Shown here: positions 59,509-63,238 of the stretch, one piece after another | How positions within the stretch are numbered: position 1 is the first letter of the stretch | How the letters are laid out: each line of letters starts with the position of its first letter | From: Candidatus Acidiferrales bacterium | Lineage (GTDB): Bacteria > Acidobacteriota > Terriglobia > Acidiferrales > UBA7541 | Assembly (NCBI GenBank): GCA_963836965.1 | Contig: CAWILQ010000023.1 | Span: 57,797 to 121,796 of the forward strand | Direction: 5' to 3' | Length of the DNA: 64,000 nt | The notes under the pieces: generated by a model | The model's database searches: none | Seen by the model: the letters and a program-made list of their open reading frames with translations, nothing else | What the model was told of the DNA's origin: nothing | Translations under genes and position numbers: made by a program

Positions 59509-60126
59509 CTAGCGTGACATCTTGCCGGCAATCTCCGCCACATGCTTGCCCTGATAACGAGCGACCTTCAGTTCGTTCTCGCTTGGTTGGCGCGAGCCAT
59601 CGGGACCGGCCAACGTAGTTGCGCCGTACGGGGTTCCGCCGCTGACGTCGGCCATGTGCGTTAAGCCGGATTCGCTGTAGGGCACGCCAACGATGACCAT
59701 GCCGTGATGGAGCAGCGTGGTATGAAAACTAGTGATTGTGGTTTCCTGACCGCCATGCTGAGTACCCGTGGAAGCGAACACACTTCCAACTTTACCGATC
59801 AACGCTCCTTTCATCCACAACGGCCCCGTTTGGTCCAGAAAATTGCGCATCTGGGCAGCCATATTGCCAAAGCGCGTAGGGGTGCCGAAGATAATAGCGT
59901 CGGCTTCGGGAAGCTGTTCGACTTTTGCGATGGGAATTTTTGCGAAGGAGGCTTTCGCGGCTTTCGCGCCGTACTTCTCTAAGACATCATCGGGCATGAG
60001 TTCCTGAACCTGGTAGAGAGAAACTTCCGCGCCGGTCACCTGTTTTGCGCCTTCGACAACCGCTTCAGCCATTCGATGGACATGACCGTACATGCTGTAA
60101 AAAATTACCTGAACTTTGATGCTCAT
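59509..60126 (-). CDS. wrbA: NAD(P)H:quinone oxidoreductase WrbA
   Basis: [32 protein letters not shown]; ATG 60126 with AAGGAG RBS (track start 60312 over-extended). Confidence 0.93.
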
Positions 60127-61115
60127 CGTTTTTCTTCTCCTTGAACTGCGATTCCCAAACTCGTCTCCTCGGCCTGCAACGAAGAAACCGTGACCATTGG
60201 ATAGCCTTTCTCGCGCCAGGCTTCGAGCCCACCTTGAAGGGGTCGAATATGCGCGACGCCTCGCCTTCGAAGAAGCAGCGCCACACGGGCGCTGGTGGCT
60301 TCGTTCGGTCAAGTGCAGTAAAGAACGATTTCCCGGTCGAGCGGCAGTAGCCCGTTTTTCTCTGCCAGATCCTTGGAATCGAGGCGTATGGCGCCGGGAA
60401 TGGTCTCGGGATCGGCCTCAAAATCGAGCGAGTGGCGGAGATCCACAATCGAAAGATTCTCTCCGGCATCGATTTTCCGCTTGAGCTCGTCCACGCTGAT
60501 CCGAGCGATGCGCAGATCTCTAAGAAACTTTTGGCGTATCGCGAATTTGTAGAGAATGTAGCCGATAAGGCCGAGCAAGAGAAAAAACACAAGCCAGCTG
60601 CCCATCGAAGCTGCATTGCGAGCGATCAACTCAATCTGGGCGGCGAAAATATAACCAAGTCCGATATACATGCTAAGCCAGAAGAGTGTGCCGAGCACGT
60701 CATACAGCAAGAATTTTCGCAGCCGCATCTGAAAGATTCCCGCCAGTGGCATAACAACCGCGTTGAGGCCGGGAACAAATTTCGTAAAGAGTAGAGTCTT
60801 TGCGCCTTGCTTTTCGAAGAGTCCCTCGGTGCGGCGAACGCAGGAATCCGGCTCGAGAGAGATGCGGCACAGCCACTGGACAACTTTGATTCCTTTACGG
60901 CGTCCCAATTCGTACCAAACAAAGTCGGCCAGAACGGTGGCAAAGGCGCACGAGAACAACGCCGCCGCGAAATTCATTCGACCGGTTCCCGCCAATGCGC
61001 CCGCGGCTAACAAAATCGGTAAAGAGGGAAGTGGCAGTCCAATTTGCTCCAGAAATACCCAGACCACCAGGAACAGGTAGCCGTGGCGGAAAAGGGTCTC
61101 GAGGAGGGAGGGCAT
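60123..61115 (-). CDS. DedA (VTT) + rhodanese fusion, probable selenoprotein (in-frame TGA at 60311-60309, codon 269)
   Basis: DedA motifs ([17 protein letters not shown]); rhodanese starts (IVDLRH, IPGAI, VLYCT), TGA, then [34 protein letters not shown] to TGA at 60125-60123. Confidence 0.85.
60268..60307 (-). promoter_or_regulatory. bacterial SECIS-like hairpin
   Basis: After UGA: CGAA-c-GAAG-ccac-CAGCGCC-[CGUGU]-GGCGCUG-CUUC-UUCG; apical loop starts 21 nt after UGA and has G then U at loop positions 2-3. Confidence 0.7.
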
Positions 61116-61136: not shown

Positions 61137-61748
61137 TCAGGCTTGACCATTCAGGAACGAGGCAGGCTGGCCCCAATTTCCGGACATCACGAATTCGGCG
61201 AGTGGTTTGCGCGTGCGCGCGGCGAGTTCGCGCTCGCGAAGAGTTTCCGGCAGGGATTGGACTTCGCCCGGATAGCCGATGGCGAAGGCTGCAATGGGTT
61301 CCCAACCCGCCGGTATGGAAAAAACCTGGATCGCTTTTTGCGGATCAAATCCTGCCATTTGGTGAACAAAAAGGCCACGGGCGGTTGCCTCTGTCGTGAG
61401 GTGCGCCATTGCCGCGCCCGTGTCGTAGAACGCGTTGCGGTTGGGTTTGCCGGTGCGCGCGAAGGCAAGCTCGGAAACGGCGATGCCCAGAACGGGAGCG
61501 TGCTTGGCCCAAGACTGGTTCGCTTCTACTAGTGTGCTCAGCACTTTCCCGTGCGTGGCCGAATCTTCTTTCGTTGCCACGATGAAGGCCCAAGGTTGTT
61601 CATTGCTACTGGATGGCGCCCAGCGAGCGGCTTCAAATAGGCTTCGAAGCACCTCGGCAGGGACGACTTTGTCCGAGAAAGCGCGCGGGCTCCAGCGCTC
61701 GCGGATCAATTCGTGTACGGGATGATCGGTGGCAGCAGGTTTGTTCAT
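61137..61748 (-). CDS. nitroreductase family protein
   Basis: IRERWSPRAF, EAARWAPSSSNEQPW, YDTGAA, HQMAGFD, RTRKPL. Confidence 0.92.
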   Translation of the reverse strand: MNKPAATDHPVHELIRERWSPRAFSDKVVPAEVLRSLFEAARWAPSSSNEQPWAFIVATKEDSATHGKVLSTLVEANQSWAKHAPVLGIAVSELAFARTGKPNRNAFYDTGAAMAHLTTEATARGLFVHQMAGFDPQKAIQVFSIPAGWEPIAAFAIGYPGEVQSLPETLRERELAARTRKPLAEFVMSGNWGQPASFLNGQA

Positions 61749-61875: not shown

Positions 61876-62391
61876 TCATGCCTGGTTCTCCTTTTTTGCC
61901 TTCGAGATCGTTTTGGATGCCTGAGCACTCTCGACGGGTTCACGCTGTTCCACTTCCATCAGCAATTCCGTCAACTGCTTCAAGCGGGCAGCCGGCATGT
62001 GGCGAAACTGATCTTTGTGTAGTTCATGTACCGGCAGGTCCAGTTTCTTCAATAACTTCAGGCCGTCCGGTGTGATACGGGTTTTGATAACCCTGCGGTC
62101 CTCTTTCTGACGTTCGCGGGTAATCAGCTGGTGAGCTTCCATGCGGTCAAGCAGCCGCGTGATATCCGGATCGCGCGAAATCATGCGCTCGCTGATGCCG
62201 CGGCAAAGGAGCCCATCCGGTTCCGCGCCTCGCAGAATGCGAAGCACATTGTATTGAGCAGGGGTAAGGCCCCCGGTTTTGATAAGCCGTTCGGCCTCTT
62301 GCGACAGGGAATCAGCCGTCTTCAGGATGGCGACAAACAAACGGTCCTCCAGGTGCGTCGTGGGACAGGAAGCATCTGCTCGCGAACTCAT
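61876..62391 (-). CDS. MarR family transcriptional regulator
   Basis: GLTPAQYNVLRILRG, PDITRLLDRME, EDRRV, ITPDG..LL; ATG 62391 preferred. Confidence 0.9.
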   Translation of the reverse strand: MSSRADASCPTTHLEDRLFVAILKTADSLSQEAERLIKTGGLTPAQYNVLRILRGAEPDGLLCRGISERMISRDPDITRLLDRMEAHQLITRERQKEDRRVIKTRITPDGLKLLKKLDLPVHELHKDQFRHMPAARLKQLTELLMEVEQREPVESAQASKTISKAKKENQA

Positions 62392-62397
62392 GGCAGC

Positions 62398-62426
62398 ATG
62401 ATAGCTGTTATAACGACTATTGTCAA
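62398..62426 (-). promoter_or_regulatory. leaderless marR promoter with palindromic operator in the spacer
   Basis: TTGACA-17 nt-TATCAT, 6 nt before ATG; ATAGctGTTATAACgaCTAT dyad at 62401-62420. Confidence 0.7.
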
Positions 62427-62461
62427 GAGGAAAGTATTTCCGCGGCCGCGACTGCTCCGCA

Positions 62462-63238
62462 TTACGGCTTCGCAACCGGCCGCAGGTGTACTTCGCTGAT
62501 GAAGCTTTGCGATCCTTGTAGAATCACCATCGCCACCGCGTGCGCCACGTCGTCCGCCCTCAACACTATCGTCGGGTCCTTCGATCCGCGTCCGGAGAAC
62601 TCCGTGGCAACGCTGCCGGGACAGATCACACTGACGCGGATGCCGTGAACGCGCAAGTCTTCCGCCATGCAGCCGCTCAATCCTTGCAGCCCCCATTTCG
62701 AGGTGCAATAGAGCCCACCACCGATGAAAGTGTTTTTACCCGCGAGTGAGCTGATATTGATGATGTCTCCGTTGCGCCGATGAATCATCAGCGGCGCAAC
62801 GGCTCGCGAGACCAGAAACACGCTCTTGAGATTGGTGTCGAGGACGGCGTCCCAGTCCGATTCACTTTTTTCCTGAATCGGACCAAATCCGGGATTCCCG
62901 ATTCCCGCATTATTGATGAGCACGGTAATCGGCCCAAGTTTCTCTTCCGTCGCTTGCACGAGCGCGGAAATCTCGGCTGCTTTTGTGACGTCTGCCTGAA
63001 ACTTCAGAACCCTCGAAGAGAATTGTTTTAGTTCGCCGGCCACCGATTCCAGCGCTTCCCTATCGCGTCCGCAGATGCTCACCGCCGAGCCGAGTTGCGC
63101 AAGTTTTATGGCAATTGCTTTACCAATTCCGCGGCTGCCGCCAGTGACTAGGGCAACGTGGCCGAATAGGGGCTTTTCAATGTGAGCACCCGGTTTTTCG
63201 ATTTGAGCTGCAGTATTTGCATTGCTTATATTTGCCAT
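62462..63238 (-). CDS. SDR family oxidoreductase
   Basis: TGGSRGIG, NNAG, NISS, YCTSK, ICPGSV. Confidence 0.9.
   Translation of the reverse strand: MANISNANTAAQIEKPGAHIEKPLFGHVALVTGGSRGIGKAIAIKLAQLGSAVSICGRDREALESVAGELKQFSSRVLKFQADVTKAAEISALVQATEEKLGPITVLINNAGIGNPGFGPIQEKSESDWDAVLDTNLKSVFLVSRAVAPLMIHRRNGDIINISSLAGKNTFIGGGLYCTSKWGLQGLSGCMAEDLRVHGIRVSVICPGSVATEFSGRGSKDPTIVLRADDVAHAVAMVILQGSQSFISEVHLRPVAKP

Follow-up and report, generated by a model that had tools for sequence, protein, structure and literature searches.

A DedA-rhodanese fusion gene of uncultured soil Acidobacteriota with an in-frame TGA that probably encodes selenocysteine

We analysed a 64,000-nucleotide stretch of the genome of a Candidatus Acidiferrales bacterium (the window, C23:57797-121796, within a genome of 6.58 Mb in 29 contigs), and in particular a minus-strand gene at 61115-60123 whose reading frame contains a TGA codon ahead of its last 61 codons. 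The predicted product joins an N-terminal DedA membrane domain to a C-terminal rhodanese domain, and the in-frame TGA falls within the latter. We put the probability that this is a genuine selenocysteine (Sec)-encoding gene at about 0.9, based on comparison of sequences; its single inner-membrane product would have 330 residues. A first-pass annotation, made from the letters of the window, had proposed that the UGA encodes Sec, and this proposal is now supported by the Sec machinery of the genome, by the alternation of TGA with Cys codons among homologues, by conservation downstream of the TGA, and by a hairpin that behaves like a bacterial selenocysteine insertion sequence (SECIS) element.

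The ATG-initiated open reading frame (ORF) on the minus strand (61115..60309) comprises 268 codons and ends ...DREIVLYCT* at TGA 60311-60309. Past this TGA the same frame stays open for 61 further codons, up to a second TGA at 60125-60123, which overlaps the ATG of wrbA (60126-60124) as ATGA, an arrangement usual for translational coupling. The first-pass annotation had held that the 268-residue call stops in the middle of a domain and that the real stop is the TGA overlapping wrbA. Both points stand, the first because the Pfam Rhodanese match spans the TGA and the second at exactly these coordinates. Read through, the gene (60123..61115, minus strand) has 330 codons plus the terminal TGA (60123..60125), with codon 269 (60309..60311) as the predicted Sec codon; the product has 330 residues, and 331 only when the terminal stop is counted as a residue. 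Orthologues in at least 40 genomes cover residues 1 to ~310, the TGA included. The motif around the TGA is LYCTU (C-x-U), and the codon of the partner residue Cys267 (TGC, 60315..60317) is invariant in 98 of 98 unique sequences, as is the residue in the protein alignment. Annotation pipelines were expected to cut such a gene short, and they do: among the 120 database proteins listed, 44 end ...YCT at ~268 residues. The remaining 76 are full-length and carry LYCTCPNE, in line with the YCxCPNE that had been attributed to Cys homologues.

Codon 269 was compared among relatives of the source genome. A six-frame search of 60 relatives gave an orthologue in 42 genomes, mostly with exactly one TGA within the match, and the codon column was then compiled from 30 loci of these relatives and 80 loci of named GTDB species genomes. 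Across these 110 loci the codon is TGA in 99, TGC in 6 and TGT in 5, and no other codon occurs, so the alternation of TGA, TGC and TGT that had been suggested as a check is indeed present. The TGA persists across clades whose protein identity goes down to ~55-60%. In a maximum-likelihood tree of 107 sequences, built with the Sec/Cys column masked, the Cys forms nest within the Sec forms, and at least four switches between Sec and Cys are required, which is the number forced by the starred branches.

The downstream frame is conserved in relatives and shows no decay. Over 90 unique sequences of the TGA form, the synonymous difference (pS) is 0.50 and the nonsynonymous difference (pN) 0.11 in the 37 codons that follow the TGA, giving a pN/pS of 0.22, close to the 0.19 of the 13 codons before the TGA. 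By these ratios, the sequence past the "stop" is evolving as coding sequence. Every gene caller nevertheless reads the TGA as a real stop, and the ~268-residue database entries are accordingly named 'VTT domain-containing protein' or 'membrane protein DedA'. Under that reading, the gene would be a pseudogene or would encode a deliberately truncated form; its product would be a 268-residue DedA protein ending in a broken rhodanese stub, and the last 61 codons would be untranslated. We consider this highly improbable, given the purifying selection on the 37 downstream codons at a synonymous divergence of ~0.5, the retention of TGA in 99 loci, its replacement solely by Cys codons, and the fact that the stop would break the rhodanese fold halfway through the active-site loop. 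The TGA could also be a misassembled or misread TGC or TGT, for which the single-base difference between these codons is the only argument. Such an error is excluded because the same TGA is found in ~90 independently assembled genomes from several projects; moreover, the TGA is accompanied by a co-varying hairpin signature absent from the Cys forms, and the chance of such an error is negligible.

The hairpin in question lies at 60276..60294 on the minus strand (CAGCGCC-CGUGU-GGCGCUG), with its stem starting 14 nt and its loop 21 nt after the UGA. The first-pass annotation had described a 7-bp GC stem with a CGUGU loop at this distance; the structure is as described, with the stem consisting of 6 G-C pairs and 1 A-U pair. 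The 5' arm runs from C60294 to C60288, the loop from C60287 to U60283 and the 3' arm from G60282 to G60276, and the isolated hairpin has a folding energy of -11.8 kcal/mol. The bSECISearch criteria of Zhang and Gladyshev (2005) reportedly place the apical loop ~16-37 nt from the UGA with a G among its first bases, and the hairpin at 60294-60276 agrees with them in both stem-loop spacing and loop G.

What distinguishes this hairpin is how differently it fares in Sec and Cys orthologues. The third-codon sites that fall in it (+20, +23, +26, +29 and +32) have entropies of 0.16, 0, 0.09, 0 and 0 bits in 88 unique TGA forms, as opposed to 0.47, 1.36, 1.57, 1.30 and 1.57 bits at the same sites in 10 unique Cys forms. 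Directly downstream (+35 to +71), the third positions of the TGA forms have entropies of 1.0-1.9 bits, and pS is 0.23 in the hairpin codons versus 0.60 in the rest of the downstream stretch. The stem is broken in most Cys forms; for example, the pair +19/+33 is G-A in 7 of the 10. Because the hairpin is degenerate in the Cys forms although their peptide (SAR/Q-V/L-A) is almost unchanged, the constraint belongs to the TGA and not to the protein. From these comparisons, a nucleotide constraint tied to the TGA rather than to the peptide is the expected signature of a bacterial SECIS element.

The closing pair +17/+35 of the Sec forms is C-G in 56 and G-C in 13, with both changes at synonymous sites, and within the 6-bp core the Sec forms show seven single-side changes, all of which lead to G-U wobbles. 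The stem is retained, with a CGGGU loop, by four orthologues that belong to another family of the same order. Exactly the same register is found for the hairpin in two diverged paralogues with Sec, L138 from another family of the class and L139, a second copy in a congener, each of which shares 36% identity with the query; in L138, a G-C pair has changed to A-U on both sides, a compensatory change. In a 34-sequence alignment, 95.4% of the pair cells are paired, compared with 19-69% after the partner positions have been shifted by 1-3 columns. All the loop variants observed (CGUGU, CGGGU, AGGUU, AGUCU and CGUGC) retain a G at position 2. The first-pass annotation had proposed bSECISearch or RNA folding as a check of the SECIS; comparison of the sequences shows synonymous sites that are frozen solely in TGA forms, together with compensatory changes. 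Just before the TGA, at 60312 (third position of the Thr268 codon), 86 of the 88 unique Sec forms have T, and the Cys forms have G in 4, C in 3 and T in 3, which suggests a 5' context constraint on the UGA. The minimum free energy (MFE) fold also contains an extended lower stem (CGAAG/CUUCG) that relatives do not conserve, +41 being free to vary across from an invariant A; our claim is confined to the upper hairpin of 7 bp.

A GC-rich stem-loop within an operon could also be a transcription terminator or attenuator, or it could result from constraint on the encoded protein. However, there is no T-tract after the hairpin, a terminator scan makes no call there, and the bases downstream vary freely, while the coding-constraint version is contradicted by the degenerate hairpins of Cys forms with nearly the same peptide. 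Either origin is extremely unlikely.

Two individual sequences deserve mention for the state of their hairpins. One is a lone Cys form (TGT) within a Sec clade, on CAWAFN010000001.1, which keeps both SARVA and most of the hairpin (AGCGCGCGTGTGGCACTG); this looks like a recent Sec-to-Cys replacement in which decay of the SECIS is just beginning. The other is a TGA form placed next to the main Cys clade, on DASXMB010000036.1, which has an intact stem, the loop AGUCU, and SASLA in place of SARVA. Judging from its sequence, it may represent an intermediate state of SECIS drift.

The presence of selA, selB, selC and selD had been named as a further check, and the genome that holds the window has all four. 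A single tRNA-SeC(tca) is located at C10:243800-243898 (aragorn), and the NCBIfam models score 555.5 bits for selA (cut-off 267.9), 360.9 bits for selB (cut-off 242.25, model positions 1-578 of 581) and 343.3 bits for selD (cut-off 125). In addition, an FdnG-type formate dehydrogenase alpha gene (molybdopterin oxidoreductase; C8:305829-307385, minus strand) contains a single in-frame TGA (ENQARV-TGA-HGPTVSSLGPTFGRGAMTN) followed by a stem-loop. Its ARV-TGA-HGP is what we take to be the classical FdnG/FdoG selenocysteine site. By this motif, the C8 gene is a second, classical selenoprotein gene, and the Sec trait is in use in this genome. Among the 61 relatives tested, selA was found in 34 of the 35 high-quality genomes, carriers of the Cys form included. 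At a completeness of 90% or more, no TGA-form genome lacks selA, and the TGA-form genomes without a selA match are 62-81% complete. In G060, the sole complete genome that lacks selA, the protein is a Cys form (VVLFCTCPSE).

Read-through by a near-cognate or suppressor tRNA (Trp, Cys or Arg), with the hairpin merely stimulating generic read-through or pausing, would also yield the full-length protein, and full-length translation alone would explain the downstream conservation. But such read-through leaves the other observations aside: the hairpin fits the spacing, size and loop G reported for SECIS elements and decays exactly where TGA has become TGY, the column alternates with Cys alone, which is the isostere of Sec, the genome has the full Sec machinery and another Sec gene, and the closest curated family is a CxU selenoprotein family. 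We therefore regard it as very unlikely.

The Sec codon lies in a well-defined domain. The rhodanese domain (residues 207-302; 60210..60497, minus strand) is recognised by Pfam PF00581 (48.6 bits vs 22.2) and NF041203 (85.4 bits) and also by Foldseek, whose best matches in the PDB are all rhodanese domains, including the membrane-anchored YgaP and the persulfide-handling fusions PRF, CoADR-RHD and Npsr. In a phmmer alignment to PDB 6mxv, residue 269 falls without gaps on the Cys of the CGGGFRS active-site loop, and the spacing from 269 to the conserved Gly286 and to Gly295-Gly296 fits the canonical six-residue loop. This suggests that Sec269 most likely occupies the canonical position of the rhodanese catalytic Cys, with Cys267 as its partner in the C-x-U motif. 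The AlphaFold2 (AF2) model, computed from a 46-sequence alignment (mean predicted local distance difference test score (pLDDT) 76.8, predicted TM-score (pTM) 0.56), has helices up to residue 203, followed by an alpha/beta domain. The linker after the last membrane helix is strongly basic, from which, by the positive-inside rule, we infer that the rhodanese domain is cytoplasmic.

Several observations count against the Sec reading or against parts of it. Support for Sec decoding consists of comparative sequence evidence, so that the claim of incorporation is an indirect one. In its 81-nt context, the region of the hairpin reaches an MFE of -30.6 kcal/mol (z = -2.0), which is equalled by 8 of 200 shuffled sequences; the fold by itself is thus only mildly unusual, and it is therefore the comparative data that carry weight. 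Here, only 2 of the 7 pairs change on both sides, covariation being thin as the stem is so conserved, and the shuffle statistics are inflated by the relatedness of the sequences. An Rfam scan of 60100-60400 at E values up to 10 gave no SECIS family and one chance match to a small RNA (15.7 bits). We give this little weight, because Rfam is not known to offer good models of bacterial SECIS. Since selA is near-universal in the lineage, its co-occurrence with TGA forms discriminates little. As to the active site, an alignment to PDB 3tp9 puts Cys267 rather than residue 269 on the catalytic Cys, with a 2-residue gap, and the AF2 confidence around the active-site loop is moderate (pLDDT ~70). The enzymatic function, and the role of the second Cys pair described below, are far more speculative than the Sec reading.

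The DedA/VTT membrane domain spans residues 29-155 (60651..61031, minus strand; Pfam PF09335, 55.7 bits vs 33.9), and a Foldseek search of the PDB gave no structural match for the DedA part of the AF2 model. Within this domain is a Cys83-x8-Cys92 loop (60840..60869), which is invariant in 46 of 46 aligned proteins and present by strict pattern in 103 of 107 sequences. The four diverged relatives examined, whose listed identities to the query are 34-40%, also have a CX8C motif; the canonical DedA paralogue of the source genome lacks it. Because it is flanked by Arg and Lys, the loop is probably cytoplasmic, and it could constitute a second redox or metal-binding site facing the CxU loop of the rhodanese domain.

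Like the DedA flippases of undecaprenyl phosphate (UndP; UptA and YghB/YqjA), the protein has a VTT/DedA domain with an acidic pair, in that Glu23 and Asp64 correspond to the two acidic residues of the canonical DedA paralogue. The motif of the second re-entrant loop is KFVPGLN, as opposed to RFVPIVR in the canonical paralogue, and its second position varies across the family. In YghB, an Arg pair (R130/R136) has been assigned to binding of the phosphate of UndP (PMC10127716); the KFVPGLN positions are equated with R130/R136 by motif position only. Compared with the flippases, the R-x5-R motif is altered, so that the conserved Arg pair is missing here, and the CX8C loop is unique to the fusion family. 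The UptA models (NF052604 and NF052605) give 57 bits (NF052604), which places the protein outside that equivalog at its cut-off of 250. Because these scores are far below the cut-off, UndP flipping is not assumed for this protein.

Rhodanese selenoproteins as such have a history. Zhang and Gladyshev are said to have first predicted, in 2005, a rhodanese-like selenoprotein known as 'form 3' or COG0607 form 2. Selenoproteome reviews of 2022 and 2026 distinguish five rhodanese selenoprotein forms, of which 'form 3' has a CxU motif (PMC13188914, PMC9312934). The corresponding model, NF041203 (rhodanese_LYCAU), is the best NCBIfam match of our rhodanese domain (85.4 bits over model positions 16-123 of 126). 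Both share an L-Y-C-x-U motif at the active-site loop, which is LYCTU here and LYCAU in the name of the model, and the motif, as L-Y-C-x-U/C, is invariant across the fusion family. The designation 'rhodanese-related (seleno)protein' implies that Sec and Cys alternate in the NF041203 family as well. However, the score is below the equivalog cut-off of 115 bits in the protein search (85.4) and in the genome search (80.9), and NF041203 describes a stand-alone protein of ~126 residues, whereas here the domain makes up residues 199-307 of a 330-residue DedA fusion that has the CX8C loop in addition. A database search with the rhodanese domain by itself, aimed at stand-alone LYCAU relatives, returned mostly contig-edge fragments of the same fusion, with no match named as a selenoprotein, so the relation to NF041203 is drawn from the score of the hidden Markov model.

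As 'form 3' (NF041203) is already catalogued, a Cys-x-Sec rhodanese selenoprotein is not a new class. Both the CxU rhodanese class and the decoding mechanism are known, and by its sequence the DedA-fused subfamily with its CX8C motif would be a new variant. The two selenoproteome reviews do not mention DedA, VTT or SNARE-associated domains (PMC13188914, PMC9312934), and our literature search found no paper that combines selenoprotein, DedA and rhodanese. DedA-rhodanese fusions themselves have been noted, with the functional link between the two domains described as 'unclear' and no mention of Sec (PMC10127716). The Cys-containing fusions of DedA (COG0586) and rhodanese, named 'DedA family protein/thiosulfate sulfurtransferase GlpE' by PGAP, have the same architecture, and their full-length LYCTCPNE forms are 60-75% identical to the query. 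They differ in having Cys at position 269 and in lacking the hairpin, and they nest inside the Sec clade.

Two well-studied E. coli systems offer further comparison. YgaP (PDB 5hbo and 5hbl) is likewise a membrane-tethered cytoplasmic rhodanese (Foldseek E ~3e-4, target-normalised TM-score ~0.73), but its anchor consists of two C-terminal helices instead of an N-terminal transporter-like DedA domain, and its catalytic residue is Cys63, without Sec and without a CxC or CxU motif. The fdhF and fdnG genes, like the present one, have a short stem-loop inside the coding sequence after an in-frame UGA, with G(U) in its apical loop, and they belong to a genome with selABCD. In our gene, the stem lacks a bulged U and is capped by a CGUGU loop, the structure being a candidate SelB site; the fdhF loop is about one codon nearer to the UGA than the 21 nt observed in this case.

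Among uncultured soil Acidobacteriota, a large group (Candidatus Acidoferrales/Acidoferrum) carries the gene near-universally, and yet public annotation truncates it at residue 268 and no NCBIfam model captures it above its cut-off. The selenoprotein catalogue contains few integral-membrane entries, such as a putative MerT and a cation ATPase. A fusion of a Sec rhodanese with DedA would provide a handle on why rhodanese is joined to DedA and on what CxU rhodanese selenoproteins do. The Sec and Cys orthologues, with hairpins frozen in the one and decayed in the other and a minimum of 3-4 switches in the tree, are also a good natural data set for the evolution of SECIS elements within coding sequences. 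None of this overturns anything established.

The gene belongs to a tightly packed same-strand group. Downstream, wrbA (59509..60126, minus strand) codes for an NAD(P)H:quinone oxidoreductase (TIGR01755, 310.7 bits) and is found in the same position in 28 of 80 related loci; past it lies a terminator-like hairpin (59517-59495). A gene of the nitroreductase family (61137..61748, minus strand; PF00881, 82.1 bits) is located 21 nt upstream of the selenoprotein gene, preceded by an ORF for a MarR-family regulator with a listed TTG start (61876..62475, minus strand; PF01047), which adjoins in 76 of 80 loci. The MarR gene in turn overlaps an SDR gene (62462-63238, minus strand), and dcd converges from the opposite strand. 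Overall, the SDR, MarR, nitroreductase and dcd genes flank the fusion gene in ~74-77 of the 80 related loci. A promoter-like site (TTGACA-17-TATCAT, 11 of 12 positions, sigma-70-like) is present at 62426-62398 on the minus strand and may be the promoter of the marR-nitroreductase-dedA/rhodanese-wrbA cluster. Since this site falls inside the 5' part of the TTG-initiated ORF, the real start of MarR is probably an internal ATG (MSSRADAS...) downstream of the listed TTG.

These features can be combined into a proposed mechanism. The TGA at 60311-60309 would be decoded as Sec by the SelB/tRNA-Sec pathway, directed by the 19-nt hairpin from 14 nt downstream, which would act from inside the coding sequence as bacterial SECIS elements do. 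The resulting protein would consist of the N-terminal DedA/VTT domain with its CX8C loop, the positively charged linker and a C-terminal cytoplasmic rhodanese domain. In such a protein, the selenolate of Sec269 would be the nucleophile of a membrane-held rhodanese-type active site and would take up sulfane sulfur or attack an oxidised or electrophilic substrate, after which a selenenylsulfide between Cys267 and Sec269 would resolve the intermediate. A relay may connect these two residues with Cys83/Cys92 in the DedA domain, and the enzyme would act jointly with the MarR-regulated flavin reductases. The enzymatic role that we infer is hence that of a membrane-tethered selenol/thiol redox or sulfur-transfer enzyme, and the conserved MarR-nitroreductase-DedA/rhodanese(-WrbA) cluster points to a role in redox, electrophile or chalcogen stress and not in housekeeping sulfur transfer. 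A bolder and rather doubtful proposal is that the DedA-rhodanese family is a distinct membrane redox machine, in which a relay formed by four conserved chalcogen residues at the cytoplasmic side, Cys83/Cys92 and Cys267/Sec269, couples selenol chemistry to movement of a DedA cargo across or within the membrane; for example, chalcogen or metalloid species or a lipid-soluble electrophile might be reduced or trafficked under MarR control together with the nitroreductase and WrbA. If this were true, the protein would be a membrane-integrated bacterial selenoenzyme with a function unlike that of either soluble rhodanese sulfurtransferases or UndP-flipping DedA proteins.

A second, diverged family of DedA-rhodanese paralogues shares ~34-36% identity with the query; within it, Sec and Cys alternate separately, and a SECIS hairpin lies in register (L138 in genome G053, L139 on G033:C20, and L141 and L142 in G005 and G036). 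Its motif is IYLYCT-U/C-[PR][RN][DE]ATS. Some congeners carry a copy of this family, and the source genome has none at E <= 1e-20. Finally, seven orthologues that are nested in Acidoferrales clades and have the same gene neighbourhood are found on contigs labelled as Eisenbacteria, Verrucomicrobiia, Saccharimonadales, Methylomirabilota, Cybelea and Limnocylindria; these are likely mis-binned or mislabelled contigs of metagenome-assembled genomes rather than cases of horizontal transfer.

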